Origin: a virus
Lineage: Duplodnaviria > Caudoviricetes
Reading direction: 5' to 3' (one strand)
Length of the DNA stretch: 52,496 bases
IMG/VR virus record: IMGVR_UViG_3300020131_000006
Coordinates: 1-52,496 of that record
Below the pieces are notes generated by a model. That model saw only the letters and a list, made by a program, of their open reading frames with translations. It was not told where the DNA came from and made no database searches. Within the stretch, counting starts at the first letter, position 1, and every line of letters begins with the position of its first letter. Positions 1,437 through 30,288 of the stretch are shown piece by piece. A program made the translations under genes and the position numbers.

Positions 1437-1445
1437 GAGAAACAA

Positions 1446-1604
1446 ATGGCTAGATATTATGTAGAGTTTACAGTAAATGGTGAAGAAGATGGATATGAAG
1501 TTGAGGCTTCTTGTGCATCTAAAGCAGAGGCAATTGTTCTATCGGAAAGCACAGTAGCCATTGTTGTTACCTCTGTTTCCGTAGTCGGAGAGTGTGGGTC
1601 ATAA
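1446..1604 (+). CDS. hypothetical protein (52 aa)
   Basis: AGGAGA RBS; MARYYVEFTVNGEEDG...; TAATG coupling to the next ORF. Confidence 0.6.
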   Translation: MARYYVEFTVNGEEDGYEVEASCASKAEAIVLSESTVAIVVTSVSVVGECGS

Positions 1605-1741
1605 TGTATTACAATAGAGAGCTAAATGATTCCTTGTTTGGTTGTCTGATATTGGAATACTTTTACACCAACGAGCATACATTCCCTGAAGGATACACTC
1701 TAGGGGATTTTCATGAACGACTTATGAATTGGATTACATGA
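1604..1741 (+). CDS. hypothetical protein (45 aa)
   Basis: TAATG overlap upstream and ATGA overlap with the polymerase start. Confidence 0.5.
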   Translation: MYYNRELNDSLFGCLILEYFYTNEHTFPEGYTLGDFHERLMNWIT

Positions 1742-2919
1742 GACTTGTATTCGACTTTGAAACCACTGGCGCACAGAGGAATAAAGGTCATCCATTCGAC
1801 TATGTAAATAAAGCCTGTAACATTGGATTTAGAGATATTGACACAAAGCAAGTATGGATATTTAGCCTAGAGTACGATGATGAACCTTACGGAGAGAACC
1901 TTAAGCAGATACAAGAACTGCTGGATAAGACGACACTTCTCATAGGGTTCAACATGAAGTTCGATATTCATTGGCTCAGACGGTACAATCTAAATCTGAG
2001 TCGGCTATGTCGTATCTTTGATTGTCAAGGTGCTTTCTTTATCAAGTCAGGACAGATGGTTAGATACCCATCTCTGAATGGGGTAGCAGAACACTTTGGC
2101 GCAGAGGCTAAACTAGATGTAGTAAAGGAAGAGTATTGGGACAAGGGTTTAGACACAGACCAAGTTCCGTACAGGCTACTCTGTGAGTACTTAGAGCAAG
2201 ACTTGGTTGTAACAGAACAAGTATTCTTTGAGCTTCAGAAGTGGCTAGAGTCCAGTTCTTTTGAGACTAAGCGGGTAGTATCAGTAACAATGCAAGACCT
2301 CTTGGTGTTAGAAGATATGGAATGGAATGGCATGTTATTTAATCGAGATAAGAGTATTAGAAAAGGAGACGAACTTGAAACAACAATTGAAGGAATTGAT
2401 AACCGCCTCAGAGAAATCTTTGGGCAGCCTTGGGCAAACATTAATAGTGGAGAGCATCTTTCTGCTTGCCTTTATGGTGGGACTGTTCTATTGGACGGTT
2501 ACGAGTCTTACACTTTTGTTTACAAAGATGGACGAGAAGCAGAAAAACAAAGAAAAGTCAAAGTCCCGCACACTTGCAAACCTTTGTTTAGCCCACTGGA
2601 AGGAACTGCTCTTGCAAAAGAAGGCTTCTATTCAACAGACGTTGGTACGCTTAAAAAACTTGGTGAGAAAGCCAAGGGGGTGCAACGGGAAGTCATCGAG
2701 CTTCTAACCAATCGAAGTAAACTTGAGAAACGTAGAGGCACATACTTCCATGGTATTCCCAAGAAGGCAATTGAGTTTAATTGGGAAGATAATGTAGTAC
2801 ATGCCAATCTGAATCAATGTGTTGCCAGAACAGGCCGGCTTAGTTCCGATAAACCAAACCTGCAAAACATTGAGGAAGATGTGAAAGAAGTATTTATTAC
2901 GAGGTTCTCCTATGGGTGA
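1738..2919 (+). CDS. DNA polymerase family A, N-terminal part (3'-5' exonuclease + thumb)
   Basis: FDFETT (ExoI), GFNMKFD (ExoII), YLEQD (ExoIII), TGRLSSDKPNLQNI; probable ATG at 1738. Confidence 0.9.
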   Translation: MRLVFDFETTGAQRNKGHPFDYVNKACNIGFRDIDTKQVWIFSLEYDDEPYGENLKQIQELLDKTTLLIGFNMKFDIHWLRRYNLNLSRLCRIFDCQGAFFIKSGQMVRYPSLNGVAEHFGAEAKLDVVKEEYWDKGLDTDQVPYRLLCEYLEQDLVVTEQVFFELQKWLESSSFETKRVVSVTMQDLLVLEDMEWNGMLFNRDKSIRKGDELETTIEGIDNRLREIFGQPWANINSGEHLSACLYGGTVLLDGYESYTFVYKDGREAEKQRKVKVPHTCKPLFSPLEGTALAKEGFYSTDVGTLKKLGEKAKGVQREVIELLTNRSKLEKRRGTYFHGIPKKAIEFNWEDNVVHANLNQCVARTGRLSSDKPNLQNIEEDVKEVFITRFSYG

Positions 2920-3157
2920 AATGGCAGAGTATTATTTGGAGCAAAGTCTATTTGGAGAAGATTGGGAATGGGCACACAACCCAATACCAAGACGAAGAAC
3001 TACATGGACAACCAGAGAAGGTAAGATACTAGAAATTTCCAAAATGGAAACTTCCCATATTAAGAACTGCATTAATTTACTTCGTAAGAAACAAATTCCA
3101 GTACCCTCTGAGTTTTACCGTGTTCTAAAAGAAAGGGGGGAAGGGAATGCTCGCTAA
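2912..3157 (+). CDS. small phage protein inserted between the polymerase halves
   Basis: 81-aa ORF overlapping both neighbours; WTTREG...METSHIKNCINLL; no nuclease motif. Confidence 0.7.
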   Translation: MGEMAEYYLEQSLFGEDWEWAHNPIPRRRTTWTTREGKILEISKMETSHIKNCINLLRKKQIPVPSEFYRVLKERGEGNAR

Positions 3158-3899
3158 CTTCGACGCAGCACAACTAGAATGGAGAGCTTTTGCTCACCTT
3201 TCTGGAGATAAAACAGCTATCCGTGAGATTAACGAAGGTTTGGACTTCCACTCTGATAATCAGGAAAAGTTTAAACTTCCTTCTCGTCTGGTAGCTAAAG
3301 TCTTTCTATTTAGAAACATCTACTGTCCTTGGTGGTTGGCTGAACGGACCGCATATGCTTATTCGGTTGACAATGACTTTAAGGATGTGGGTGGTGTTAA
3401 GTTTTGGAGAGCTGCTATTGATGCTTTCTATGAAAAATACACAGGAGGTTATGAGTACCACAAGAAGCTCAAGAATGAGGCTACAACTACAGGGCAAATC
3501 ATTAGTGAAACAGGCCGCATCCATCCTATTCAGCCCGTCCTCAGACGTGGGCAAATGGAATGGCCTGATAGTGACATAGCCAACTATCCTGTTCAGGGCT
3601 TCAGCGCCGACCTAATGGCCTTGGCGCGGGTGTCTGCGTGGAATAGACTGCGGGAATATCGAGAGAGAGGCGAAGTATTATTCGTTAATTCAGTACATGA
3701 CTCGATAGTTCTTGACATAAATACAGATGAATGGTATAATATTTGTATAACTATGAAAAAGACGTTCAGAGATATTCCTGCGAACTTCGAGAAAATATAC
3801 GGGAAGAAACTTTTGGTTCCTATGGATTCAGATGCAAAGGTAGGAGTCAATTGGTTGTGGCAACATAAAATACAAATACAAGAAAAGGATTTACATTAA
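3147..3899 (+). CDS. DNA polymerase family A, C-terminal catalytic part
   Basis: Motif A FDAAQLEWR, motif B RLVAKVFLF..IY, ANYPVQG, motif C VHDS. Confidence 0.9.
   Translation: MLANFDAAQLEWRAFAHLSGDKTAIREINEGLDFHSDNQEKFKLPSRLVAKVFLFRNIYCPWWLAERTAYAYSVDNDFKDVGGVKFWRAAIDAFYEKYTGGYEYHKKLKNEATTTGQIISETGRIHPIQPVLRRGQMEWPDSDIANYPVQGFSADLMALARVSAWNRLREYRERGEVLFVNSVHDSIVLDINTDEWYNICITMKKTFRDIPANFEKIYGKKLLVPMDSDAKVGVNWLWQHKIQIQEKDLH
3712..3740 (+). promoter_or_regulatory. sigma70 promoter inside the polymerase 3' end
   Basis: TTGACA (3712-3717), 17 bp, TATAAT (3735-3740), extended -10 TG. Confidence 0.8.
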
Positions 3900-4057
3900 T
3901 GGCATTAACTATTAGAAAGTTTTTAGCTTTTCCGTTTGCTTTAGTGGGGGCGTTACTTTTGGTAATCTCTCTACCCATTCGACATAGTTTAGAAGATGCA
4001 ACAAAGATTGTTGAAGGTTTTTCGGAAGTGCTTGACAAAGTAAAGGGAAGTAAATAA
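3899..4057 (+). CDS. small membrane protein (52 aa)
   Basis: MALTIRKFLAFPFALVGALLLVISLP...; TAATG coupling at both ends. Confidence 0.6.
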   Translation: MALTIRKFLAFPFALVGALLLVISLPIRHSLEDATKIVEGFSEVLDKVKGSK

Positions 4058-4644
4058 TGGCTACAGTTTTAGGTACGGTCATATCAGTTAGTCTAGAAAC
4101 AGAAGTAAAGAAGCAAGGTGGTGGTAGTTACAAAGGTTGGGAACTTGTGTATCGTAGCGACAATAATGAAGTACGCACTATCGCAAAGCCGGTACAGGGT
4201 CTTCGATTTAATGCTGCATTGAAGAATTCTTTGAGTTCTCTTAATGCTGGAGACCAGTTCACTCTGACTCAAGAGAAGAATGCACAAGGCTTCAACGATG
4301 TAAAGTCTATCACAAAGGGTTGGGATGCAGCAGCGGGAGACCCCGTAGCAACGCAAGCACCACCCACAGTGGCAGCAGCACAGAAGCAAGCAGCACCTAG
4401 CAATACGTACACTCAGCGGGATTATGAGACTAAGGAAGAACGAGAAAAGAAACAGAAGTTTATTATCCGTCAGTCCAGTATCTCTAATGCTATTGAGTTA
4501 CTTTCGGTTGGTGCGAAGGCAGCCCCAAAGAAAGAGGAAGTGCTAGAACTGGCTCAAGAGTTTGTAAACTTTGTGTATGAAGGTACACCGCAAGAAGTAG
4601 CACTACAAGCAGTAGCAGACATTGAGGACGACATTCCTTACTAA
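4057..4644 (+). CDS. putative single-stranded DNA-binding protein
   Basis: Beta-rich N-terminus, flexible linker, acidic-aromatic tail DIEDDIPY; sits in the replication module. Confidence 0.55.
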   Translation: MATVLGTVISVSLETEVKKQGGGSYKGWELVYRSDNNEVRTIAKPVQGLRFNAALKNSLSSLNAGDQFTLTQEKNAQGFNDVKSITKGWDAAAGDPVATQAPPTVAAAQKQAAPSNTYTQRDYETKEEREKKQKFIIRQSSISNAIELLSVGAKAAPKKEEVLELAQEFVNFVYEGTPQEVALQAVADIEDDIPY

Positions 4645-4660
4645 GTTACAAGCTTGTAAT
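4645..4660. repeat. 16-bp palindromic motif, copy 1
   Basis: GTTACAAGCTTGTAAT directly after a stop codon. Confidence 0.85.
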
Positions 4661-4688
4661 CCATAATAATAAGAAAAGAGAATAATAA

Positions 4689-5054
4689 ATGAAATCACTT
4701 CTAATTGCTATTTTGGCAACTCTCACATTCTCAGCGTTCGCTGCTGATAATGACATTAAACTGGCAGTACCTAACGACAACAATGGTCACATTGTCCTGA
4801 CTCTAGAACCATGTGATGTTAAGTTCCAAGGCCCTGTTCCAGACACTCTCTACCGTGCATACGCAACTCAGGATGAGAATACCCCACGTCAAGTAATCTA
4901 TGAAGGTTGCTGGTCTGCTGGTATCCCACCCGCAAATGAAGAAGCTCAAGGTGCTATTCCTATTGTGAATATCTACACTGATGATGGTCGAGTGTACTCC
5001 CAACCCCTGAAGGATTTTAAGAAGTACAAGCCAGCTAATCAAGTAGACATTTAA
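4689..5054 (+). CDS. secreted/periplasmic hypothetical protein
   Basis: Sec-type signal peptide MKSLLIAILATLTFSAFA; two Cys. Confidence 0.7.
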   Translation: MKSLLIAILATLTFSAFAADNDIKLAVPNDNNGHIVLTLEPCDVKFQGPVPDTLYRAYATQDENTPRQVIYEGCWSAGIPPANEEAQGAIPIVNIYTDDGRVYSQPLKDFKKYKPANQVDI

Positions 5055-5057
5055 TAG

Positions 5058-5885
5058 ATGAAAGCCCTCGTAGATGCGGATATTCTACTTTATCGGGTAG
5101 GGTATACGACTCAGGAAGAACCAGAGGGAATTGCTCAGTATAGGATGGAAGAACTTGTCAATCGGATATTGGAAAGTGTAGAGGCAACAAGCTATGCTTT
5201 CTATTTATCTGATGGGCGAACTTCCACCTTCCGAGCAAAAATAAATCCAGATTATAAGGCAAACAGAACTCAGCCTAAACCTATACACTACGACATGCTC
5301 AAGCGATATTTGATTGAGGCATGGAACGCAGAGGTACAGGTAGAACAAGAAGCTGATGATGCTCTAGGGATAGCTCAGTGGGCAGACTACTCATGGGGTT
5401 TATCTGAAGCATCAGAGTCAGACACAGACCCTGCGTGGGTTGCTGAGACTGTTATCTGCTCTATTGATAAGGATTTGTTACAGATTCCCGGACACCATTA
5501 TAACTTTGTCAAGGAAGAACATAGATACATCACCCCTGAAGAGGGACTTATCTTCTTCTACCAACAATTGCTTATAGGTGACACAGCCGATAACATTAAA
5601 GGGGTTGCCGGTATAGGCCCCAAGAAAGCAGAGAAACTTCTAAGCGGGATGGAAGGTAAGCCCGAAGAAGAAATCTTTAAAGTTGTCCAAGACGCATATC
5701 GAGATTGGTTGCAGCTAGAATGGGCTGACCAGTACGAAGAGTGGGGAGACTTTGAAGAAAAGCAAATGAATAACATCATTCTCATGAATGGTCAATGTCT
5801 AAAAATAAGAACAATAAAGGACGAAGTATGGAATTTCAAGAAAACATTCAATTTAAAACCCGAAACAATACCGACGTTAGGGTAG
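5058..5885 (+). CDS. 5'-3' exonuclease (FEN/T7 gp6-like)
   Basis: LVDADILLY, YKANR, EADD, SIDKDLLQIPG, GDTADNIKGVAGIGPKKA. Confidence 0.9.
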   Translation: MKALVDADILLYRVGYTTQEEPEGIAQYRMEELVNRILESVEATSYAFYLSDGRTSTFRAKINPDYKANRTQPKPIHYDMLKRYLIEAWNAEVQVEQEADDALGIAQWADYSWGLSEASESDTDPAWVAETVICSIDKDLLQIPGHHYNFVKEEHRYITPEEGLIFFYQQLLIGDTADNIKGVAGIGPKKAEKLLSGMEGKPEEEIFKVVQDAYRDWLQLEWADQYEEWGDFEEKQMNNIILMNGQCLKIRTIKDEVWNFKKTFNLKPETIPTLG

Positions 5886-6049
5886 ACCACCTTACCACAC
5901 ACTCCATCACTGGAGCCTATCGCAACGGAGCAAACTGGATTGAGGCTGTATGGGACGAGTCCGGTAGCTTCATGTTAGACGGCTCTGACCACCCTCTAGA
6001 CATTATCTTTGATAACTCCAAGATTAAAAATGCTCTTGGCAGGGCCTAA
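5828..6049 (+). CDS. hypothetical protein
   Basis: ORF track 5795-6049; probable ATG at 5828 after AAGGA; TAATG coupling downstream. Confidence 0.55.
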   Translation: MEFQENIQFKTRNNTDVRVDHLTTHSITGAYRNGANWIEAVWDESGSFMLDGSDHPLDIIFDNSKIKNALGRA

Positions 6050-6435
6050 TGTCTTGGACTGAAGGTCGACGCAAGGCATTTATAACATCTACCATTCGTA
6101 GCGGATTCAGAAGGTATCCAGAGAAGTTTGAAGTACTAAAGGAAGCAGCAGTCGGTAAAAAAATAAATAGCAAGTCCGGCAGAATGGCTCTCCATTATAA
6201 ATGTGCCTCATGCTCTAAGAGCTTCCCAACTAAAGAAGTACAAGTAGACCATATCAATCCAGTGGTTGACCCCATTGTAGGATTTAAAGATTGGGATACA
6301 TTCATTTCTAGGTTGTTCTGTTCTAAAGAGAACCTTCAAGTATTGTGTTTAGAATGCCATAAGAAGAAAACGAAGTCTGAAAAAGAGCAACGCGATAAGT
6401 CCTTAAAGAGCTTATCTAAAAAGGATAAAGAATGA
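6049..6435 (+). CDS. HNH endonuclease
   Basis: CASC...VDHINP...NLQVLCLECH. Confidence 0.85.
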   Translation: MSWTEGRRKAFITSTIRSGFRRYPEKFEVLKEAAVGKKINSKSGRMALHYKCASCSKSFPTKEVQVDHINPVVDPIVGFKDWDTFISRLFCSKENLQVLCLECHKKKTKSEKEQRDKSLKSLSKKDKE

Positions 6436-6662
6436 TTATAGTTCGTAATGTGCGTCAGTTAGAGGATGGAACCTACCAACTCACTTGGAATTTAGCACCT
6501 GACCAAATTGAGTTTCTATTAACTTTTGCTATCAATCATCTGTTAGCTGAAGGTTTAGTGAGTATCGAAGACCAAGCACCGGAGAGTCCTGAAGAAGCTA
6601 AGAAGCAACGAGAGCTTGACTTTCTCAATGATTTAGATGAAGAGGATTTACACCAAGCATGA
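6432..6662 (+). CDS. hypothetical protein
   Basis: ATGA-coupled 76-aa ORF. Confidence 0.65.
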   Translation: MIIVRNVRQLEDGTYQLTWNLAPDQIEFLLTFAINHLLAEGLVSIEDQAPESPEEAKKQRELDFLNDLDEEDLHQA

Positions 6663-6886
6663 GTAAGAATGACGTAACTGGCGATGAAATTAAATCAAAA
6701 GTTCCTTCTAAAGAGTTCCTAGATAACTATGACCGCATCTTCCGTAATCGAATAGATACTATCGGACAGAACGGTAACGAAGGACTCCACTACGATGCTC
6801 TATGTAATATCTGCGGGAAGGAACTAGAAAAGGTCACAGAATGTGCATGGACTTCATGCCCAAAGTGGCTAAGGGAAACTAAATGA
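6659..6886 (+). CDS. hypothetical protein with Cys cluster
   Basis: ATGA-coupled; NDVTGDEIKSK..NYDRIF, CNIC...C....C. Confidence 0.65.
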   Translation: MSKNDVTGDEIKSKVPSKEFLDNYDRIFRNRIDTIGQNGNEGLHYDALCNICGKELEKVTECAWTSCPKWLRETK

Positions 6887-7626
6887 AAATACTTCTGCTG
6901 GACATTGAAACAGCACCAAGCCTTGCATACATTTGGGGAATCTGGCAAGAGAACATCCCACTTGAGAGGTTGTTAGAATCTGGATATATCTTGTGTTGGG
7001 CTGCTAAATGGTTAGGTGAGGATGAAATCTTTTTCGATTCCGTCCAAACAAAGAGTCAGAAGGGTATGCTGAGAACCATCTATAAACTGCTCGATGAAGC
7101 TGATGCAGTTATGCACTACAATGGGAAGAAGTTTGACATTCCTACTCTTAATAGAGAATTTGTAGAGGTTGGTTGGACTCCACCTTCTCCCTATAAACAG
7201 ATAGACTTGTTGGAAACAGTTAGAGGTAACTTTAAACTACCGTCATACAAGTTAGAGTATGTGGCTAAATTCTTCGGGATTGGTGAAAAGTTTAAGCACA
7301 GTGGTTTCTCTGTGTGGGATGGTTGCATTAGGGGTGATAAAGCATCTTGGGAAGAAATGTCAAAGTATAACAAGATTGACACTACACTTCTAGAAGCTCT
7401 TTACTTTAAACTCCAACCTTGGATTAAACGTCATCCCAACTATTCTCTGTACTCAGATGATAGGATGGTATGTCCTAACTGCGGTGGTCATCACTTGGTT
7501 AAACGTGGTACACATAAGACACTACATAGTATCTTCCAAAGATACAAATGTAAGGGTTGTGGTAAATGGTGTCACGATAACAAGCGACTCAACGCTCAAG
7601 AGTTTAAGACTGTGGGTATAGAATGA
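6883..7626 (+). CDS. DnaQ/RNase H-like 3'-5' exonuclease with C-terminal Zn ribbon
   Basis: LDIET, HYNGKKFD, YNKID; CPNC...CKGC. Confidence 0.8.
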   Translation: MKILLLDIETAPSLAYIWGIWQENIPLERLLESGYILCWAAKWLGEDEIFFDSVQTKSQKGMLRTIYKLLDEADAVMHYNGKKFDIPTLNREFVEVGWTPPSPYKQIDLLETVRGNFKLPSYKLEYVAKFFGIGEKFKHSGFSVWDGCIRGDKASWEEMSKYNKIDTTLLEALYFKLQPWIKRHPNYSLYSDDRMVCPNCGGHHLVKRGTHKTLHSIFQRYKCKGCGKWCHDNKRLNAQEFKTVGIE

Positions 7627-7904
7627 CACAAGTAGAAAAACAACTGGCTATTACCAAGCTGGTAAAGAGAATGGTACAACTCACACAGGAACTGGAGTTA
7701 GCCTCTATGGATATGAAGGCATATGCTGTGCCTCTATCCAAGGGGCAGTTTCCTTCCTCTTGGGCAAAAGAAGTAAATAGAGCCTTCGAATCCTATGCTA
7801 CTGAAGCACGTCGGATTGCAGAAGCCTATGCTGAATTGTTCAAAGAGGATATAGAAGCTCCAGAAGAACCTAAACAAGAGATTAAGAAAAGGAAAAGGAA
7901 GTGA
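7623..7904 (+). CDS. hypothetical protein
   Basis: ATGA-coupled helical 93-aa ORF. Confidence 0.6.
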   Translation: MTQVEKQLAITKLVKRMVQLTQELELASMDMKAYAVPLSKGQFPSSWAKEVNRAFESYATEARRIAEAYAELFKEDIEAPEEPKQEIKKRKRK

Positions 7905-7905
7905 T

Positions 7906-8289
7906 ATGGATAATAGGAATATTGGGAGTAGTGATTCTGCTGTTACTGAGCAAGCCACGGAAGAAATCAATCCTGCAAAGAAAACCCCCTTACAAATCCG
8001 GCAAGCGACGCTAGACCAAGCTAAGGAATATACTTCTAAAGACCGCAACAGTGCATATGGTGAACCAGAAGATAACTTTCGTAACATTGCTACTTTATGG
8101 GATGCTTACCTATTTGCTAAATATCCGGGGTCTAAGCGGTTTCTCTTTGCTCCAGAAGATGTAGCAATTATGAACATTCTTCTGAAGGTGGCCCGACTTT
8201 CTACTAACCCTACCCATAAGGATAGCTGGATTGACACGGCTGGTTATGCCGCCTGTGGTGCTGGCATTGCCTTAAAAGGACTAGATTAA
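7906..8289 (+). CDS. DUF6378-like phage protein
   Basis: DRNSAYGEPEDNF..IATLW, LKVARL, DSWIDTAGYAACG. Confidence 0.7.
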   Translation: MDNRNIGSSDSAVTEQATEEINPAKKTPLQIRQATLDQAKEYTSKDRNSAYGEPEDNFRNIATLWDAYLFAKYPGSKRFLFAPEDVAIMNILLKVARLSTNPTHKDSWIDTAGYAACGAGIALKGLD

Positions 8290-8835
8290 ATGAACAATGA
8301 GCCTTGGATTCAGACGTACACAGGAAAAAAGTTTTATTTCTTAAACCCAACTCCTGACATGATTGATGTAGAAGACATTGCCCACGCTCTCTCTATGCAG
8401 GTACGGTTCGGTGGACACATTAACAAGTTCTACTCTGTGGCAGAACATTCTGTTTATGTGAGTGAGCTAGTTGGTAAATCTGATAAGATGGGAGCATTGT
8501 TTCATGACGCAAGTGAGGCGTATATCGCTGACATTGTGAGTCCTCTGAAAGAACATCTTCGGAATTATAGAGAGATTGAGGATAAGTTGATGTGGGCTAT
8601 TTCTAAGAAGTTTGGGTTTGAGTATCCTTTCCATCCAGACATTCACGATGCAGACCACGCTCAACTGAAGACTGAAGCTAAGGCTCTATTGAATCACTTT
8701 CCTACATGGTTAGCTGATTACCCAACAACCCGTGCTGGTGGAGTTCAACCTTATGGGTTGGCTCCTGAGAAAGCTAAAGCATTATTCTTAGGAACTTATA
8801 TGTTCCTTACTACTGGAGATATGAAATATGCGTGA
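8290..8835 (+). CDS. HD-domain phosphohydrolase (YfbR/YfdR-like 5'-deoxynucleotidase)
   Basis: EDIAHALS..RFGGH..YSVAEHS, LFHDASEAY. Confidence 0.85.
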   Translation: MNNEPWIQTYTGKKFYFLNPTPDMIDVEDIAHALSMQVRFGGHINKFYSVAEHSVYVSELVGKSDKMGALFHDASEAYIADIVSPLKEHLRNYREIEDKLMWAISKKFGFEYPFHPDIHDADHAQLKTEAKALLNHFPTWLADYPTTRAGGVQPYGLAPEKAKALFLGTYMFLTTGDMKYA

Positions 8836-22097: not shown

Positions 22098-23432
22098 TTA
22101 GTTTGTTCCTTCTAAGAAAGATGGTTCTAATGCCTCTAATCTAAGAGGACAAGTATCATGATGACGTATTTCATAAGCTCTACGTCTTGCTCGTCCCATA
22201 CGAGACAACATACTCTTATCTCTATTCAAATCAACAGCGCGGTACTTAGACCAATTCTGGTAGTCGTCGTCGGTGTATCTTAAGTAAGCGAAAGACTCTA
22301 CCTTATCTCCAACAATTTCAATCTGAGAAGTGAATTTCTCTTTGGTACTTCCTGCATCAAACTTAAATGTTCGAATTAGAACATCAATGGGATTGCCATT
22401 ATCCGCGTACGTACCATTATCAATCATAAAGATGTAACCTGTGGTGCTGTCTTGAACGAAGTCAATGTTGTCACCAGAGGTATAGGAAGCTATAGCGAAA
22501 GGCTCTTTATCATAGCCAAACAGAGTACCAAGAACAGTTGCAGTACCGGGATTATCTAGCAAAGCATAGCTAAAGGTATTAGCATCAATGTACGAAATGG
22601 TATGAGAACCATTATATTGTTGTGGAGTACAGCCAGTAATAACTACTCTATCACCATCAGCAAAACCATGATTGGTAAGAGTTACAGTTACAGAACGATT
22701 ACTCCAAACAAGACCGCCAATGTTCTGAGAGTCTTGTGGGATGCAAACAGACCACGTGGCAAATTGCTGTGTGGTTACATCGTAGACTAGAGTAATACCT
22801 ACTGTACCTAAGTAAAGAACATAGAACACATGACCAGAAATACGAATACAGAAGGCAGTAACATTCTGCATATCATCTTTATTCAGTATACGATCAATGA
22901 ATGGGTTAGACAGATACTCAGGATTAGTCCCCACAAACCTATAAATACCACGACCCTTCTGTTTAGTAACACCAACAAAGAACATAGAGTTATCTGTTTG
23001 TGCTACTGTTCCTGCTGCCGCACAACCAACCTCAACTAGGGCACTGTCGTAAGGAAGCAAAGGACTTCCTGCTGCTGGAGGATTTGGATTGGAGTAGAAG
23101 AACTCAGTTGCGTAAGCCCCCATGGAAACCAAGAGGTTCAACTGACGGCCTAAATAAACACCATCATCAGGTTCCGCATGAGACTGAATTACATTAAGAG
23201 CTGACCAAGTAAGAGGGTCATTAATCTCAGAACCGAAGACAGTACCATTAGAGTTCATAACATAGTAGGTACCATCCATATACTGTATGCCCGGAACTGT
23301 GTTCGCAGGATAGTCTGGGTCAGTAATTTGTGTTACAGTAGTTCCATCGAAGTAGTACGCAGCAGTCTCAGACTTATAAACAAAGCCAACACCAGATACT
23401 GGAGATTCTTGTATGAATTCGAATGTAGCCAT
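22098..23432 (-). CDS. tail nozzle (P22 gp10-like), C-terminal part
   Basis: TQITDPDY, DGTY, AEPD, TEFF, GCAA, TLVYD, LRYTDD..NWS, R.G.ARRR; lacks the expected N-terminus; contains an inserted small beta-barrel. Confidence 0.75.
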   Translation of the reverse strand: MATFEFIQESPVSGVGFVYKSETAAYYFDGTTVTQITDPDYPANTVPGIQYMDGTYYVMNSNGTVFGSEINDPLTWSALNVIQSHAEPDDGVYLGRQLNLLVSMGAYATEFFYSNPNPPAAGSPLLPYDSALVEVGCAAAGTVAQTDNSMFFVGVTKQKGRGIYRFVGTNPEYLSNPFIDRILNKDDMQNVTAFCIRISGHVFYVLYLGTVGITLVYDVTTQQFATWSVCIPQDSQNIGGLVWSNRSVTVTLTNHGFADGDRVVITGCTPQQYNGSHTISYIDANTFSYALLDNPGTATVLGTLFGYDKEPFAIASYTSGDNIDFVQDSTTGYIFMIDNGTYADNGNPIDVLIRTFKFDAGSTKEKFTSQIEIVGDKVESFAYLRYTDDDYQNWSKYRAVDLNRDKSMLSRMGRARRRAYEIRHHDTCPLRLEALEPSFLEGTN

Positions 23433-23435
23433 TAG

Positions 23436-24374
23436 TTATCCAATTACCCCGCTGAGAGAGCCTATGTTAGTTAAATCTCCGAAAGCATTTGTTTGCTCAT
23501 CATGAAACTCTAAAATATTTAGAGGGGATTTGTATGAGAAAAGACCGAGGAAAGTAGTCCCTTTCATAAGTTTAATTCTACTAAATGTTTCGGTGTTTAG
23601 GTATCCGGCTGTATATGTATCATTTATTTGATTAGAGTAAATATCACTTAAAACAATGAAGCCACCTTCTCTATCACCCGGTTGCCCAGTTCCAAATCCA
23701 AAGTCAGCATTAGGAAAGATAAAACCACTTTGATCTACTCCTCTAGCTACTATGGTGGCATTAGCTCCATCTACCCCATACTCAGAGTCTGGGTAGAATG
23801 CGTAAAAGACTCTGCTGCCCGGGCTTCCGGATTGGACAGGAACAGGAACAGAGTACCCACTGATAGTGCCTGTGAAGAATACTTCTGGCTCCTCTGGTAG
23901 AATCTCTGTACTGAAAACAACATTTGCCATTTCTCCGTTAACGGCTTGTCTATAAAATTCTAAACTTTCAAAATTATCTAAGGTGATAACAGAGGGATTA
24001 GCTAAAATTAAGTCACCATTTAAATAACTGTTATTCTGTAGTGGGGTTACTGACAGTTTAAAGTGAATGTTATAGTTAGATACAGGAACTTCAACAGTGT
24101 ACCCAGTGGAAATTCCGATACCAAGTGAAACTATTCCATTTCCTATAGAAAGAGTAAAGTTTTGAGTTCTAGAAGTAATATAAAGAAACTGCTCCTCATG
24201 CTCTGGAACAAACCCAACTATATCGAATTCAAAAATAAGTTCTTCTGAGGTCACAGCCTCAACTACTCCAGACACTTCAGCCGTACCCATAGTCTCTCCA
24301 GCCATATCAGCGTAAAGCTGGTAGGTGAATTGGTCAGAGTCTATTACATTAACAATATCGTATTTTTTAGCCAT
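23436..24374 (-). CDS. virion-region protein with shared KKYDIV N-terminal module (copy A)
   Basis: MAKKYDIVNVIDSDQFTYQLYADMAG... then a unique beta-rich body. Confidence 0.7.
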   Translation of the reverse strand: MAKKYDIVNVIDSDQFTYQLYADMAGETMGTAEVSGVVEAVTSEELIFEFDIVGFVPEHEEQFLYITSRTQNFTLSIGNGIVSLGIGISTGYTVEVPVSNYNIHFKLSVTPLQNNSYLNGDLILANPSVITLDNFESLEFYRQAVNGEMANVVFSTEILPEEPEVFFTGTISGYSVPVPVQSGSPGSRVFYAFYPDSEYGVDGANATIVARGVDQSGFIFPNADFGFGTGQPGDREGGFIVLSDIYSNQINDTYTAGYLNTETFSRIKLMKGTTFLGLFSYKSPLNILEFHDEQTNAFGDLTNIGSLSGVIG

Positions 24375-24724
24375 TAAGAGAACTTAATTGTCTGTCCGGG
24401 TTTTAGTGGAAGAAGACCTTCTTGAAAGTCAGTGTAAAATATAATGTTACGATATGTAAAAGCTTCAGTAGAAGGTAGGGAAAGTGTTACTACATTACCC
24501 ACGACATTCGTTACACTAGTTCCAGAACGAAGACCATTAGCGTAGACATATAAACCAATCGAAATTCCAGAGCCAGAATTTACTGTTAGGGAAGTGGAAG
24601 CGTCAGCTATGGTTCCAATCCTAGAGATTGCTGGTGGTGGTATAATCTCAAACTGAGTATATTGTTCCCTATTAAAGATGTTATCTGAAATAGTAACTAA
24701 TTGTAGTTCTTCATCTGTAGGCAT
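24374..24724 (-). CDS. putative tail-associated protein
   Basis: G..V..NG..SGT.VT.V.G..VTLS beta motif; TAATG coupling. Confidence 0.6.
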   Translation of the reverse strand: MPTDEELQLVTISDNIFNREQYTQFEIIPPPAISRIGTIADASTSLTVNSGSGISIGLYVYANGLRSGTSVTNVVGNVVTLSLPSTEAFTYRNIIFYTDFQEGLLPLKPGQTIKFS

Positions 24725-25140
24725 TATTCCTCCAGTACTTCAAGAGAACTCACTGGGATGCGTGGGATTAGGGAAATGTCAATCTCTACAGGACCATCAG
24801 TAATCTCAGCGAAATATAGAAGAGTGCCTGCACCAGTAGCGGCTGTACCTATACCAAAATAGGTTACTTCAACTGCTGGTTCTGCTTCACATTGTGGGAA
24901 CTCAATCTCCGCGGTATTGCTAATGGAGTTAGCATTGACAGTGAAGCCACCACTATTTCTAGTAACAGCTACGCGCTCATATCCTTCGTAATCCACTTCA
25001 TTAGTGGTTTGATCTCCAGCCACAGTTGGAGTATCTGTATGCAAAGAGATATATAGATTGGTATTAGCATTCCAAGGAAGTGCTGTCCCATTAAAAAGAA
25101 GGGTAACTAACTGCGTCCCAAACACTACGGTTTTTGGCAT
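24724..25140 (-). CDS. conserved phage tail-associated protein
   Basis: LYISLHT.TP, NEV.Y.GY.RVAV, N...IEFP, VTYFGIG...G.LLY. Confidence 0.65.
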   Translation of the reverse strand: MPKTVVFGTQLVTLLFNGTALPWNANTNLYISLHTDTPTVAGDQTTNEVDYEGYERVAVTRNSGGFTVNANSISNTAEIEFPQCEAEPAVEVTYFGIGTAATGAGTLLYFAEITDGPVEIDISLIPRIPVSSLEVLEE

Positions 25141-25445
25141 TATATATAATCCTCATTACTGATAACTACACTCTGAGCACCAAACATATTTCCGCTAGGG
25201 ATGAAGCCACCTAAGATGCCGGGGTTAGTTGTGACGTACCAGACGGTACCATTGTGATAAAAGATACCTCGATTGAGTCCTGTGGTAACACCATCAGAAC
25301 CCATTACAAAGCCGGGCCTCTTAACTGCAAAAATAGCCCCATAGGGATTCTTCTCAACAAAGGCATTCTGTAACAAAGCATCTTTGTCTAGGTTAGCATC
25401 ACGAGGCTCTGTTGGGACACCAAGCTCTAAACGTTTTCTTTCCAA
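25140..25445 (-). CDS. probable N-terminal part of the tail nozzle
   Basis: RD....DA...NAFVE....KRPG....RG resembles the gp10-family N-terminus; TTG start. Confidence 0.55.
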   Translation of the reverse strand: MERKRLELGVPTEPRDANLDKDALLQNAFVEKNPYGAIFAVKRPGFVMGSDGVTTGLNRGIFYHNGTVWYVTTNPGILGGFIPSGNMFGAQSVVISNEDYI

Positions 25446-26438
25446 TTAAGTATCCCTCTTTTTATACACAGATATTAAAGTCTCTTCTCCAGAAGGAAGA
25501 CCGAGAACATAAATGCTTCCATTGATGTACCCCATCACTCCAGAAGTTATCAGTGGCATTTCTTCAGGGGTCAGGATATGTTCTATAGGAGCTGAAGCAC
25601 CATCTGGAATTTCCAGTAAAACATTGGTATTGTTAGTTCTTCCAAAAATGTAATTAGTTGTGCCTATTTTAGTTTTGAATTGTCCAAAGACAGAACCACC
25701 AGAGCTAGTCCAATAGAGACTCCAGTTAGTCCCATCAGAAGTCTTCCAAATGTCACCACCATTTGCTCCGAAAACTCTCATAACATATAAGTTATTAGTA
25801 TCCTCGAACCAAATACCGGAATTACCTACTGTCGGCAGCCCTACAGTTTCGTGCCAATCCCCACTCTTAGTTGTCCAGTCCATTCTCCACATGTCATTAG
25901 TAAATGAATCATTTGGAAGTGTGTACATGTAATTATTAAAAACTACATGTTCTCTAGAATCAAACCAGTCAGGAGCATTTCCAGATACACGACTCCAAGT
26001 AGTATAGGGAGTACTAGTTTGACACCACTCGAAGTCACCAATATCTAAACTTGTAAAAGCATATAGGACAGACTCGTACTCATATGGAAATATCCCATAA
26101 TAAAGATAAGCAGTAGCGGGATAAGAGCCTGCTTCCCCCGCATTAATAGGAGTACCATTATCTAAATCAGACAAAGACCAAAGAGTAACAGTTCCATTGG
26201 GGTCTGTATCTATAAAGGTACCAATATATGCCGTATCTTCTGTATAATAATAGATTCCTATAAGATTTTCAGCCCCCAAATCAAACTGGTTAACTAGGTC
26301 AAAGATATTGGGGTCTTCGGCTTCTACAGTTCCACTAACCTCTACTGTACCTGTAGTAGTACCAGCCATATCCACATACAACTGATACGTAAACTGGTTA
26401 GGTTCTAGGAAGTTAACAATGTCATACTTTTTTACCAT
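25446..26438 (-). CDS. virion-region protein with shared KKYDIV module (copy B), beta-propeller-like body
   Basis: MVKKYDIVNFLEPNQFTYQLYVDMAG...; Asp-box-like WKTSDGTNW. Confidence 0.7.
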   Translation of the reverse strand: MVKKYDIVNFLEPNQFTYQLYVDMAGTTTGTVEVSGTVEAEDPNIFDLVNQFDLGAENLIGIYYYTEDTAYIGTFIDTDPNGTVTLWSLSDLDNGTPINAGEAGSYPATAYLYYGIFPYEYESVLYAFTSLDIGDFEWCQTSTPYTTWSRVSGNAPDWFDSREHVVFNNYMYTLPNDSFTNDMWRMDWTTKSGDWHETVGLPTVGNSGIWFEDTNNLYVMRVFGANGGDIWKTSDGTNWSLYWTSSGGSVFGQFKTKIGTTNYIFGRTNNTNVLLEIPDGASAPIEHILTPEEMPLITSGVMGYINGSIYVLGLPSGEETLISVYKKRDT

Positions 26439-27376
26439 TGGGTACGAATAGTTCCACGGTGATCTGGAGTAAAGAATACACCAGCTTCTTCTTGAGAGAA
26501 GTCCATGCAGTCATTCAGATACATTTCTGCTCTAGCTTGAATACGCATAATTTTATTCTCAGCAACTTCATACTCTTCACTCAACTCATTAGCCAAGTTC
26601 CACTTGAGAGCTTGGAACCATTCTTGGGGGAAGTCGAAGTTCTGAGTGCCTTCAGACATATCTTGGAACTGACGTTGTACGGTAATGTAGATAACAGAAC
26701 CATCTGCTGCCGGTACGTTATAGACATACATTAAACCATTGATTAACTGAGTGTCGTAGTAGTATTGAGTAGGGACACCAGCAGAGGATTTATTACCAAG
26801 GATGTTGTATTCTTGTTGGGATATAGCAAACAGAGTAGTGTCAAAGTTCTCTGTGTTTCTGATGTAACCATCAATGATACGTAGAGGTCTGGACATAGTA
26901 AGTCCTGCCACTATAGCAGTACCAGCAGCATTGGTACCCCCACCACTGAATGTTACAGTAGGTGCTGAGGTATATGAGTTACCACCATTTGTAATAGTTA
27001 CAGATTGGATAACACCACCAGATGCTGTATATGTACCAGTAGCACCAAGACCACCACCAGTAAAGGTAACAGTGCCGGAATTTGGATAGCCAGTTCCGCC
27101 ATTGGTAATATCTACTCGATAAATGTAACCAGCAGTAGGACCTATAGGATAGACACCTAAACCACTAAGCATAGGAACAGCAATACGTTCATATACCCAT
27201 AGAGGGAAACCCTTCTTAACCCAACTCTTAAGCATGATATTTAGAGCTTCAGAGCAATTAGCATAATCCTCTGTCTCTGCGGTTTGACCTGAGCCGATAA
27301 CAGTCAAGAGTCTTAAGGCAGCATCAATAATCTCATCGCGTGTTACGGTAAATGAATATGTTCCTGAAGTTGCCAT
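26432..27376 (-). CDS. head-tail adaptor with inserted Gly-rich domain
   Basis: MATSGT..F..RDEII..ALR, ALN.ML..W, G.PTQYYY, FPQEW..AL.WNLA. Confidence 0.7.
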   Translation of the reverse strand: MATSGTYSFTVTRDEIIDAALRLLTVIGSGQTAETEDYANCSEALNIMLKSWVKKGFPLWVYERIAVPMLSGLGVYPIGPTAGYIYRVDITNGGTGYPNSGTVTFTGGGLGATGTYTASGGVIQSVTITNGGNSYTSAPTVTFSGGGTNAAGTAIVAGLTMSRPLRIIDGYIRNTENFDTTLFAISQQEYNILGNKSSAGVPTQYYYDTQLINGLMYVYNVPAADGSVIYITVQRQFQDMSEGTQNFDFPQEWFQALKWNLANELSEEYEVAENKIMRIQARAEMYLNDCMDFSQEEAGVFFTPDHRGTIRTQW

Positions 27377-27377
27377 A

Positions 27378-28235
27378 TTAGCCTATTGTAATATTTGTAA
27401 GTGTGTTTGGTGCAGATGGGCTACTTAAAAGTAAAGTAAGTGTGCCGGAAAGAACATTAGCTGTATTAGCTATCTCAACTCCATTCCTAAAGAAATAGAT
27501 AGTTGTTCCATTCTGACTTGCTTGGAACTCACCTTCTGGACTTAATGTTTGGGTTAGATCATAAGCTATGGCACCAGCTAAAACTAAGGCTGTTCTTACT
27601 GCTGTGGTCGTGAGTATGAAAGCTACGTAATTTGAGAAGTTTGGACCTATGTATATTGCAGTAGTTGCTGTTGGAAGTCCTGTGGATGTAAATGTTGCAA
27701 TATTGTCAAGTTCTGGAACAGGAGCTTCTGCTACAATATAATTGGTTTTAGTTTCAGTATCAGAACCACCGGGACCTGTTACAGTTAGAGAGACTGTATA
27801 CTCACCAGCTTCTATGTATTCGTGAGTAGGATTCTCTAAGGTGCTTTCTGACTCATCACCAAAGTTCCACAAATAACTTGAGATTGACCCGGTACTTTCG
27901 TTGGTGAAAGTTACTGTAAATGGAACTGTATCTCCCAAAGGATTTCCAGAGAAAGCCGCTACTGGAGGTTCTCCTACTGGTGCTGTAGGGTCCCAAGGTT
28001 CTAGAGACTGAGCCCCCGAAGTAAACTCATCAGGAGCTTCTGGTCTTGATAGAACTGGTCTGGAATCATCTAGAACTCCACGAACAAAGTCCTGCGGTTG
28101 TCTAGGTTCCCAACATCTTTTGCATGTCCAAATACCGTCCCACTGTTTTGCTAACTGATGGGCCTTATACTTTTTGCCACACATATCACAGATGACATTA
28201 TTGGACCCATCTAAATAATAATCTGCTCTGCCCAT
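27378..28235 (-). CDS. Cys4 phage protein fused to a PKD (Ig-like) domain
   Basis: CDMCG...WDG..C..CWEPRQPQ, then PVAAF...V.FTN.STG....WNFGD....NPTH.Y...G.Y.V.LTV. Confidence 0.75.
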   Translation of the reverse strand: MGRADYYLDGSNNVICDMCGKKYKAHQLAKQWDGIWTCKRCWEPRQPQDFVRGVLDDSRPVLSRPEAPDEFTSGAQSLEPWDPTAPVGEPPVAAFSGNPLGDTVPFTVTFTNESTGSISSYLWNFGDESESTLENPTHEYIEAGEYTVSLTVTGPGGSDTETKTNYIVAEAPVPELDNIATFTSTGLPTATTAIYIGPNFSNYVAFILTTTAVRTALVLAGAIAYDLTQTLSPEGEFQASQNGTTIYFFRNGVEIANTANVLSGTLTLLLSSPSAPNTLTNITIG

Positions 28236-28243
28236 TTAAGTTC

Positions 28244-28786
28244 CTAAGACGTATATTGAAGATTTGTAACAAATACTTGTTCAGGATTAGATTCAAAAGC
28301 ATCCAAGGGTGATACTGGCACAGTAACTGTGTTATTAGAGCTTGTTATTGAACAAACGACAACACCATCTTGTGATAGAGTGTAGGTATTTCCTATCTTT
28401 TCAACTAAGATATTTCTAGTCCCATATGCCGAAACACCAGTATCTATAATGAAAGAATCCTCATCTTCAATAATACCATTAATAAATCTGCGAAGTCTTA
28501 ATTGGCTATTTACCGTTGCTCCTCTAGTAGTCTGAAAGTAGGCTTCTAAGTAATTAGAAGAAGCATAACCATCATAATACTCCCTAATCCAAGCAGCTCT
28601 AACAGAACCTCCTGCGGTAACATTTGAGGTAATTGTATATGAGAAATTTCTAAACTCCAATGGAGGGGAATCAACTACTCCAGTGACTTCGGATGTTCCA
28701 GTGGTAGTTCCTGACATATCGGTATAGAGTTGGTACGTAAAAGCATCAGAATCTATCACACTGACTATGTCATATTTCTTAGCCAC
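28244..28786 (-). CDS. virion-region protein with shared KKYDIV module (copy C)
   Basis: GTG start overlapping the upstream TAG; MAKKYDIVSVIDSDAFTYQLYTDMSG... Confidence 0.7.
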   Translation of the reverse strand: MAKKYDIVSVIDSDAFTYQLYTDMSGTTTGTSEVTGVVDSPPLEFRNFSYTITSNVTAGGSVRAAWIREYYDGYASSNYLEAYFQTTRGATVNSQLRLRRFINGIIEDEDSFIIDTGVSAYGTRNILVEKIGNTYTLSQDGVVVCSITSSNNTVTVPVSPLDAFESNPEQVFVTNLQYTS

Positions 28787-29043
28787 TATTTCATCTTTCC
28801 GGTTTTGGTCCTTGCATAACTACGATTTTTACTTGCAGCCATAACTCGCAAGTTACTCCGAGAATTTGAGCCGCCCTTAGAGAGCGCCTTCTTATGGTCT
28901 ACATCTTTCCCGTCACCTTTCCGGACGAGTCCCTCGCGCATAAGAGTACGCCTCGCAGCGTTACGTTTGGCCCTCCGTTTCTTAACTTCAGGCTTAGAAT
29001 CATATTTTTGTTCAGCTTTATAATCCCGTACTTTGCGAGGCAT
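28786..29043 (-). CDS. small basic HNH-like protein
   Basis: RDYK.E, GDGKDVDHKK.LSKGG.N...NLRV....NRS. Confidence 0.75.
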   Translation of the reverse strand: MPRKVRDYKAEQKYDSKPEVKKRRAKRNAARRTLMREGLVRKGDGKDVDHKKALSKGGSNSRSNLRVMAASKNRSYARTKTGKMK

Positions 29044-29376: not shown

Positions 29377-30288
29377 TTAAACAGTGCTACCGAACAGAGC
29401 CAGAGGATCAGTCCAACCGAAGGAATAACGCTCGAAACCCTTAGCTTTCGCATTCATGGTGTCGAAATCGTTATCTTGGTCAAACGTGATAGCCTCACGC
29501 TCGTAGTACTTAAGACCATTCGATACGTTAGTACGAACGAACCAAGCACTTGGATCGGAGAAGTAGTGATTCAGCTTGATGCCTTTCGGGAAGACATTCA
29601 GAGCTTTAACTACGTTGATATCGTTGTTAGCGTTTCCGGTTTGGAATACAGAACCAAAGATGCGATGGGCTTCCCACCAGTTAGCCGGAGCTACGTGGAG
29701 AGATTGACCCATAAGGTTGATCAACAGACCACGATCATCCTTTGCTTCCATGATTTGAGTTGCCAAATCTTCAATTGCTTGTTCAGACAAATCCGCAGCA
29801 ACGGACAGAACGTTAGAGAACGTACCGCCAGAAACATTTGGGTGAGCTGCATTAAGCAACGACACACCATCACCACCGACATAGTTTGCATCAAACGCGT
29901 TGTTGTAGATGCCTGCGGCAACACGTTCCTTCGTTTGACGGAAACCACGTGCCAGAGACGAGGCGCGGGTATTGGATACTTCGGAGTACAGATTGTCCTT
30001 CAGTTCTTCATGAGTCACGATATAACCCATTGCGTAAGCAACGTGGGTATAGCGAGTGATGAAGCCTTGAACTTCAGAATCGTACGTTACAGCAGCACCC
30101 TGAGGTTTTTGTGGAACCAGACCAAAGCCAACCAACTTAACATCTTCTTCATACGCCTTCTCGGACGTGAAGCTGTCAAACAGATCGGTATACTCGGTTT
30201 GGTGATCGTCGTACTCTTTACCCCACCACGCCTTGACACCGGGCCAAAGGGCTTTTGGGTGTAAACTAGTATTAATTACGCCAGCCAT
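29377..30288 (-). CDS. major capsid protein
   Basis: KALWPG, S.KAYEE, G.AVTYD, RYTH, DNLY, GGDGVSL...HP, DFDT.N.K.K..ERYSFGWTD. Confidence 0.85.
   Translation of the reverse strand: MAGVINTSLHPKALWPGVKAWWGKEYDDHQTEYTDLFDSFTSEKAYEEDVKLVGFGLVPQKPQGAAVTYDSEVQGFITRYTHVAYAMGYIVTHEELKDNLYSEVSNTRASSLARGFRQTKERVAAGIYNNAFDANYVGGDGVSLLNAAHPNVSGGTFSNVLSVAADLSEQAIEDLATQIMEAKDDRGLLINLMGQSLHVAPANWWEAHRIFGSVFQTGNANNDINVVKALNVFPKGIKLNHYFSDPSAWFVRTNVSNGLKYYEREAITFDQDNDFDTMNAKAKGFERYSFGWTDPLALFGSTV

Follow-up and report, generated by a model that had tools for sequence, protein, structure and literature searches.

A conserved N-terminal tag on three otherwise dissimilar podophage proteins, and its predicted docking on a gp80-like fibre dimer

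The IMG/VR entry IMGVR_UViG_3300020131_000006 is a complete virus record of 52,496 b, and this whole stretch of DNA is the window of the present analysis. The phage is a P22/GP4-like podophage. Within its minus-strand head-tail gene block lie three open reading frames (ORFs), here called A, B and C, whose products begin with the same module of about 40 amino acids (aa), the tag, and continue as bodies that show no pairwise similarity. In this report, we describe the tag and the protein family defined by it, and discuss its predicted docking on a gp80-like fibre protein and a 116-aa neighbour, p116, both encoded close to A. The parts concerned are listed below; on this strand the high coordinate of a gene is its start.

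24255-24374, minus strand: tag copy A, codons 1-40 of ORF A (alignments; profile expectation value, E, 3e-32)
26319-26438, minus strand: tag copy B, codons 1-40 of ORF B (alignments; profile E 4e-32)
28667-28786, minus strand: tag copy C, codons 1-40 of ORF C, with its GTG start (alignments; profile E 3e-30)
23436-24374, minus strand: ORF A, 312 aa, ATG start
25446-26438, minus strand: ORF B, 330 aa, ATG start
28244-28786, minus strand: ORF C, 180 aa, GTG start
23436-24254, minus strand: body of A (residues 41-312), rich in beta structure and without a known family
25446-26318, minus strand: body of B, beta-propeller-like (Atlas model compared with Kelch propellers)
28244-28666, minus strand: body of C, small and all-beta, the commonest type among 11 relatives from outside this genome (family alignment)
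24724-25140, minus strand: gp80-like fibre I/whisker protein, 138 aa, predicted socket as a dimer (Pfam PF23140)
24374-24724, minus strand: p116, a 116-aa ORF, tag-contacting in the complex model

Residues 1-44 of A, B and C align without a gap, and 23 of the 44 columns are invariant. Measured against A, the identity over these residues is 66% for B and 70% for C, and the three-way alignment collapses past residue ~40. Within codons 1-40, each pair of genes has 25-30 identical residues, 15-18 of which are written with different codons, and nucleotide identity amounts to 76-83 of 120 positions. The same residues encoded by differing codons indicate selection on the peptide and old copies, rather than a recent copying of DNA. 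A profile of the tag finds exactly three places in the 52,496-b record at E <= 1. Each tagged gene also begins on the end of the gene before it: A and C overlap the upstream stop by 1 nt (TAATG and TAGTG, respectively), and B, whose ATG is within the adaptor gene, overlaps the end of that gene by 7 nt. The original prediction, made from the DNA letters and their translations, had proposed a shared N-terminus of ~40 aa on three ORFs, synonymous divergence among the copies, and start/stop overlaps; all of these are borne out, its "start" positions being the high coordinates of minus-strand genes. It had further suggested that frameshift fusion peptides be looked for at the overlaps, where no stop-free path, and no slippery site upstream of the stops, was found. 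The A-rich runs are in tag codons 2-4 and encode Lys-Lys. In the AlphaFold2 (AF2) model of C, the tag forms three beta-strands, at residues 5-12, 15-22 and 26-33, and is the most confident part of the model. No curated Pfam or PHROG family was matched by the tag module or by whole A, B or C, and the original concern that the module might be a known self-contained domain therefore found no support in these collections.

An exhaustive search with the tag profile over 1.84 billion representative proteins (E <= 1e-3) returned 17 proteins: the phage's own three, 11 others of 148-303 aa, and three long bacterial repeat proteins. In all 14 phage-type proteins the module starts at residue 1, and 11 columns, the FTYQLY run included, are invariant across them. 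Two of the bacterial matches (P0008 and P0011) are Big_9/Cadherin_5 proteins, in which the tag profile covers the last strands of each immunoglobulin (Ig)-like repeat; the third is a PPC-repeat protein and is weak. No Pfam family was found for the 11 outside tag proteins. Their bodies are mostly small all-beta domains of the C type, the body of one member (P0015) resembles that of B, and body identity across the family is only ~25%. The original prediction had suggested a profile of the 40-mer as a means to find diverse C-terminal cargos; the search gave further proteins with the module always N-terminal and on different bodies, and the family of 14 members is new to both Pfam and PHROGs. Some of the outside tag proteins are on contigs of ~51-52 kb, as large as this genome.

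A word-based homologue search with residues 1-45 of A gave one candidate, which was A itself. For related DNA loci in viral contigs, none of 155 pattern matches was confirmed and degenerate patterns gave no match; degenerate patterns in genome contigs likewise gave none. In metagenome contigs, a single degenerate-pattern match was rejected as a chance match in unrelated repetitive DNA. Among 741 ORFs, taken from the window, from EBPR podovirus 1 and from 23 IMG/VR loci that encode nozzle homologues (hereafter the relatives), only A, B and C match the tag.

The bodies that follow the tag have little in common. Pairwise BLASTP of A, B and C from residue 45 onward found no similarity (best E 1.9, 51 and 0.47), in line with the divergence originally described. 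The bodies of A and C may be distantly akin: in hhalign comparisons, a profile of C-type bodies gave E 0.2 against the body of A and 0.45 against that of B. By eye, residues ~106-157 of A have a motif, Y-x-N-G-x-L ... N-V-x-x-x-T, in common with the C-terminal end of C-type bodies. Judged from its sequence, A may consist of the tag, a C-type domain and an extra domain of ~155 aa. Its body matched no Pfam or PHROG family and no GenBank phage protein. The ESM Atlas model of A is poor, with a predicted local distance difference test (pLDDT) score of 0.39, and its weak jelly-roll/LamG-like matches are a lead only. The Atlas model of B, which has a predicted template modelling score (pTM) of 0.70, resembles Kelch-type beta-propellers at template modelling (TM) scores of 0.60-0.71, as the original description of one body as propeller-like had anticipated; the AF2 model of B is poor (pLDDT 30.5). 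For C, AF2 gives an all-beta model of low confidence (pLDDT 51.5). We infer that the bodies are outward heads, probably adhesion modules.

The 138-aa protein encoded two genes upstream of A belongs to the Pfam family PF23140, "Podophage GP4 fiber I protein gp80" (E 1.4e-19, 71.2 bits vs a cut-off of 27), and matches PDB chain 8jou_a (E 1.9e-5). This gp80-like protein has relatives in at least 256 clusters, and its GenBank phage matches span residues 1-89 only. As for p116, a word-based search confirmed one of five candidates, p116 itself; its PHROG match is weak (E 0.003), and the PDB "Tailspike protein" chains 7rfo and 7rej appear at E 0.21-0.38.

The modelled complex consisted of two gp80-like chains (48-row alignment), p116 and, as the scored partner, the first 50 residues of the tag family (14 rows). 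The score was 0.79 in three of three runs, the contacts agreed to at least 95%, and partner pLDDT was at least 81. When the tag was replaced by unrelated proteins, the score fell to 0.02 and 0.00. A control in which the longest other chain is replaced served to separate gp80-like from p116 as the socket; with gp80-like replaced, the score was 0.21 and the pLDDT of the tag dropped to 46. The tool's mark is reached by 58 of 80 solved complexes and by 2 of 110 mismatched pairs, counts that apply only roughly to a four-chain model built on our own alignments.

In the model, tag residues 2-43 are all in contact, the partners being both gp80-like copies and p116, and residues 1-3 and 109-138 of both gp80-like copies touch the tag. 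Tag residues 19-25 pair with residues 120-132 of copy 1, and tag residues 34-38 with residues 128-135 of copy 2. At the other end, tag residues 5-7 pair with p116 residues 24-25 (error 0.6-0.8 Å), and p116 touches the tag mainly at its residues 2-29, and additionally at 102-107 and 115-116. The modelled geometry is that expected for one rope unit threading one dimer, to which p116 would add an edge strand. In three near homologues of gp80-like, the predicted-interface residues are 74-76% identical vs 68-72% for the rest, whereas in 44 distant homologues the mean identity is 25% at the interface vs 52% for the rest; the divergence among distant homologues fits a lineage-specific partner surface. 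This pattern and the three strands that AF2 gives the tag are independent of the complex model and accord with it.

The genes for gp80-like, p116 and the tagged proteins stand among core head and tail genes, and the remaining members of the block that bear on the argument are as follows.

29377-30288, minus strand: capsid protein
27378-28235, minus strand: PKD-domain protein, 285 aa
26432-27376, minus strand: SU10-type adaptor with an insert at residues ~86-160 (Pfam PF24175, phrog_12985)
25140-25445, minus strand: nozzle N-terminal piece, 101 aa (matches the N-terminus of the single nozzle of relatives)
22098-23432, minus strand: nozzle main piece, 444 aa, a P22 gp10-type "stabilization protein" (phrog_578, PDB 9vyg_M and 7eeq_1)

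Read along the minus strand, the block runs from the capsid gene through a 69-aa ORF, an 85-aa basic ORF, C and the PKD-domain protein to the SU10-type adaptor, and then through B, the 101-aa ORF, the 138-aa gp80-like ORF, p116 and A to the nozzle and the ejection proteins. The tagged genes have different neighbours: C is the third gene downstream of the capsid gene, B follows the adaptor immediately, and A immediately precedes the main nozzle piece. The latter matches phrog_578 (E 4e-33), is 39% identical to gp29 of EBPR podovirus 1, and contains an inserted small barrel at about residues 232-316.

In the relatives that have the full gene, a single nozzle gene of 584-692 aa comes immediately after the adaptor. 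Residues 4-74 of the 101-aa ORF match residues 5-74 of this nozzle (20 loci, E about 1e-5 to 1e-3), and the 444-aa protein matches it further on, over about residues 109-130 and again from about residue 256 to its end. Two ORFs that match one gene in relatives indicate that the nozzle gene is split in this phage. Between its halves stand the gp80-like gene, p116 and A, and B comes after the adaptor and before the nozzle N-piece, where the relatives have no gene.

Taken together, the favoured reading is that the tag is a rope unit for a single dimer, that is, a portable N-terminal docking tag which would be gripped by a gp80-like dimer and on which diverse bodies would be mounted. We give this reading a probability of roughly 0.55. 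An extended, three-strand tag of ~40 residues would be held by one gp80-like fibre I/whisker dimer, its strands filling the open grooves of two incomplete beta-sandwiches, with residues ~19-25 in one monomer and ~34-38 in the other, and strand 1 (residues 5-7) would pair with a segment at the N-terminus of p116. Since the same unit heads A, B and C, all three could be joined to the same gp80-like/p116 fibre apparatus, which would be encoded by a cassette within the split nozzle gene. The tag would be the conserved anchor, and the propeller, the small beta-sandwich and the larger beta-rich body would be alternative outward heads, presumably incorporated into the virion; the overlaps of stops and starts would tie the translation of the three to that of the tail genes beside them. 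This polarity, with the tag anchored and the bodies facing out, is the one we prefer, because the tag is conserved, the bodies are diverse, and the relatives' core tail manages without them.

The idea of a split-domain docking tag was already part of the original prediction. Its principle survives in part, in that fold or beta-strand complementation is the mechanism best supported by the model and by the account of Bas63, although the main predicted socket is the gp80-like dimer, a protein that the original prediction had not identified, and not the nozzle barrel. The likeness of the tag to that small barrel, on which the first proposal leaned, is weak: the hidden Markov model (HMM) of the module against nozzle residues 280-293 gives E 4.3, which is not significant. 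A complementary half had been seen in the C-terminal end of p116 (LKPGQTIKFS). In the model, p116 does touch the tag, but mainly through residues 2-29, and the core of that C-terminal segment, residues 108-114, is not among the confident contacts.

A bolder form of the favoured reading, which we put forward only tentatively, takes the gp80-like dimer as a general clamp and the tag as its plug. Any tag-led protein could then be mounted by fold complementation; one phage would show mixed, unrelated adhesin heads (a propeller, a lectin-like sandwich and a larger beta protein) on one type of socket, new heads would arise by tag fusion, and the cassette would have invaded and split the nozzle gene. 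Such a display system would be compact and transferable, and would differ both from trimeric fibre anchors and from the branching system of Klebsiella phages.

Several published systems resemble the one proposed here. In Bas63, a Felixounavirus, dimers of the whisker, a gp80-like protein, surround the N-terminal "rope" extension of the collar "like beads on a string", and the rope passes through monomer grooves, completing the whiskers' incomplete sandwiches (PMC12609058). As in Bas63, the putative rope unit in our phage is an N-terminal extension of globular proteins. Unlike Bas63, a myophage with one rope-bearing Ig-like collar and two dimers, this podophage has three unrelated proteins with one unit each, and p116 also touches the tag in the model. 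For fibre I of GP4 (PDB 8JOU; Zheng et al., 2023), later papers describe a separate rope protein that interlocks with an Ig-like collar and bears five gp80 dimers. GP4 is likewise a podophage, and the 138-aa protein of the window belongs to the gp80 family PF23140 and matches 8jou_a; in place of five dimers on one dedicated rope, however, no multi-unit rope was seen here. In the Pseudomonas phage A1002, the nozzle is split into a nozzle-rope (gp39) and a nozzle-base (gp42), and 11 dimers of two kinds, from the fibre proteins gp40/gp41, each form an augmented beta-sheet with the rope (PMC13730344). Both phages have the nozzle in two proteins with gp80-like genes between them, the A1002 order being taken from the gene numbers gp39, gp40/gp41 and gp42. 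Whereas the A1002 rope is within the nozzle-rope protein, the window has a 101-aa nozzle N-piece, a single gp80-like gene, and putative rope units on three separate proteins.

A further analogy is found in Klebsiella podophages, in which a "conserved docking peptide" on one receptor-binding protein (RBP2) binds the T4gp10-like branching domain of another (RBP1), an interaction that has been experimentally validated (PMC13352976). A conserved N-terminal peptide, here 40 aa on three proteins, would likewise be a transferable dock for different bodies. The socket differs: a branching domain in a trimeric tailspike there, and a predicted gp80-like dimer here. No significant Pfam, PHROG or PDB match to a T4gp10-like branching domain was found in the window, nor were depolymerase-type bodies. 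The original claim of an undescribed modular system therefore does not stand, given the rope/whisker assemblies of GP4, Bas63 and A1002 and the Klebsiella docking peptide. The principle, whether as docking peptide and socket or as rope/whisker fold complementation, is already published, and the variant proposed here is a single rope unit shared by unrelated proteins. Keyword searches of open-access full texts on GP4 fibres, chain-like fibres and rope proteins, which do not prove absence, found no description of a single rope unit common to several unrelated proteins of one phage, or of this 14-member family.

Several points weigh against the favoured reading. Binding of the tag rests on the confidence of a model and not on measurement, and the controls were unrelated natural proteins, with no other beta-strand peptides among them. 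As a similar type of complex has already been solved, the high score may reflect likeness to known rope/whisker structures. The tag itself has no detectable similarity to any solved chain: an hmmsearch of its profile against PDB chains gave seven matches, all at E >= 1.1 and to unrelated, non-phage proteins, in a copy whose coverage of all rope entries is unverified, and no chain of the GP4 entry 8JOU appeared at E <= 10. Candidates for the tie of the predicted complex to the tail are p116 and the 101-aa nozzle piece. No homologue of gp80-like, p116, the tag or the bodies of A, B and C was found in the 23 nozzle-related loci. The co-occurrence of tag and gp80-like rests on this genome and on one coincidence, namely that a tag protein (P0013) and a gp80-like protein 72% identical to ours (P0020) have longest contigs of equal length, 25,623 b, which is suggestive only. 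Receptor binding, finally, is suggested by fold type and variability, as the bodies have no family assignment.

Other explanations have to be weighed against the same evidence. The tag might bind the gp80-like dimer with reversed polarity, A, B and C being attached to the virion at different sites (near the capsid, the adaptor and the nozzle) and the whisker dimers being displayed to the host. The complex model fits this arrangement equally well, the genes of A, B and C adjoin different core genes, and Bas63 offers a precedent, as there a globular collar on the connector extends N-terminally into the rope and the whiskers are displayed (PMC12609058). Virion-attached parts, however, are usually the conserved ones; here it is the tag that is conserved, and the bodies are mutually unrelated and only about a quarter identical in the family. 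Moreover, homologues of A, B and C are absent from relatives whose adaptor and nozzle are of the same types, so that the core tail does not need them. We consider the reversed arrangement unlikely.

N-terminal anchors of podophage fibres usually dock directly on the tail, and the tag could accordingly dock on the adaptor insert, the small barrel of the nozzle or the adaptor-nozzle junction, the gp80-like prediction then being a false positive. Adaptor and nozzle do both have extra inserted domains, the tag has its weak likeness to the last strands of the nozzle barrel and to Big_9/Cadherin_5 Ig-like repeats, and in T7-like and P22-like phages fibres are attached to the adaptor at its beta-dock domain (PMC13730344). 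This is nevertheless improbable in view of the dependence of the score on gp80-like (0.79 vs 0.21) and of relatives that have the same adaptor insert and no tag proteins. More improbable still is a split small barrel that the tag would complete, its other half being the C-terminal tail of p116 or of another protein, with p116 alone as the socket. The p116 stop overlaps the start of A, and the modelled contacts of p116 with the tag include its residues 102-107 and 115-116, but most p116-tag contacts are near the other end of p116, the tag loses its score and its confidence when gp80-like is replaced, no barrel-like C-terminus precedes B or C, and p116 has no significant similarity to the tag and no detectable relatives, vs 11 for the tag. 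Least probable of all, in our estimation, is that the tag has no separate socket and is a self-contained oligomerisation or folding element, such as an intramolecular cap or a trimerising beta-prism. Many phage fibres trimerise via N-terminal beta structure, and AF2 does give the tag three strands; yet a three-strand meander of 35 residues has no core of its own, the tag is borne by bodies of different folds, a single-chain propeller among them, and the model puts all tag residues 2-43 against other chains.

Rope/whisker assemblies have been recognised only recently (GP4 in 2023, Bas63 in 2025 and A1002 in 2026), so far as identical beads on one dedicated rope. If the favoured reading is true, the gp80-like family would be not just a fibre subunit but a connector for diverse cargo, which would help to explain how host-recognition parts diversify in short-tailed phages. 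It would also provide a small, defined tag-and-socket pair with which to study host-range modularity of phages in laboratory strains.

Some observations on the neighbouring genes and on other phages stand apart from this argument. The adaptor insert at residues ~86-160 is a Gly-rich beta domain that is repeated in the N-terminal region of relatives' nozzles, and it weakly matches "baseplate wedge" (E 1e-4 to 8e-3) and "virion structural" PHROGs; the adaptors of relatives have either 247 aa and no insert or 331 aa and the insert. In EBPR podovirus 1 (JF412294.1), adjacent ORFs of 125 aa (7204-7581) and 343 aa (7563-8594) have a common N-terminus (30% identity over 47 aa, E 1.7e-4). The shorter of the two has a weak match to the 101-aa nozzle N-piece of the window (E 0.006), and the N-terminus of the longer looks alike by eye. 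On these sequence matches, the nozzle of EBPR podovirus 1 may also be divided, with gp29 lacking the N-piece segment.

The 23 loci, EBPR podovirus 1 and three GenBank phages with gp80-like genes were searched for a layout with a shared N-terminus, and only unrelated cases appeared. The proteins gp31 and gp30 of EBPR podovirus 1 have a nozzle-platform-like N-terminus in common. On the unrelated 85-kb phage contig IMGVR_UViG_3300049846_001128, adjacent proteins of 695 and 1357 aa (1361-3448 and 3467-7540) have their first ~45 residues in common (44% identity, E 2e-6), apparently a shared fibre anchor of the ordinary kind. A protein pair downstream of the gp80-like gene in MW202692.1 was rejected as an analogue, its members being full-length paralogues.

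Directly upstream of C, the very basic 85-aa ORF (28786-29043, minus strand) matches phrog_4590, whose function is unknown (E 3e-21), and has weak matches to HNH endonuclease PHROGs, which makes it an odd neighbour within a structural block. On the other side of C, the PKD-domain protein (27378-28235, minus strand) has a Cys-rich region (CxxC...CxxC) in its N-terminal ~100 residues, which matches stand-alone proteins of 117-137 aa in three related loci (E 1e-17 to 3e-20). It is another case of a conserved N-terminal anchor to which a variable C-terminal part has been added.

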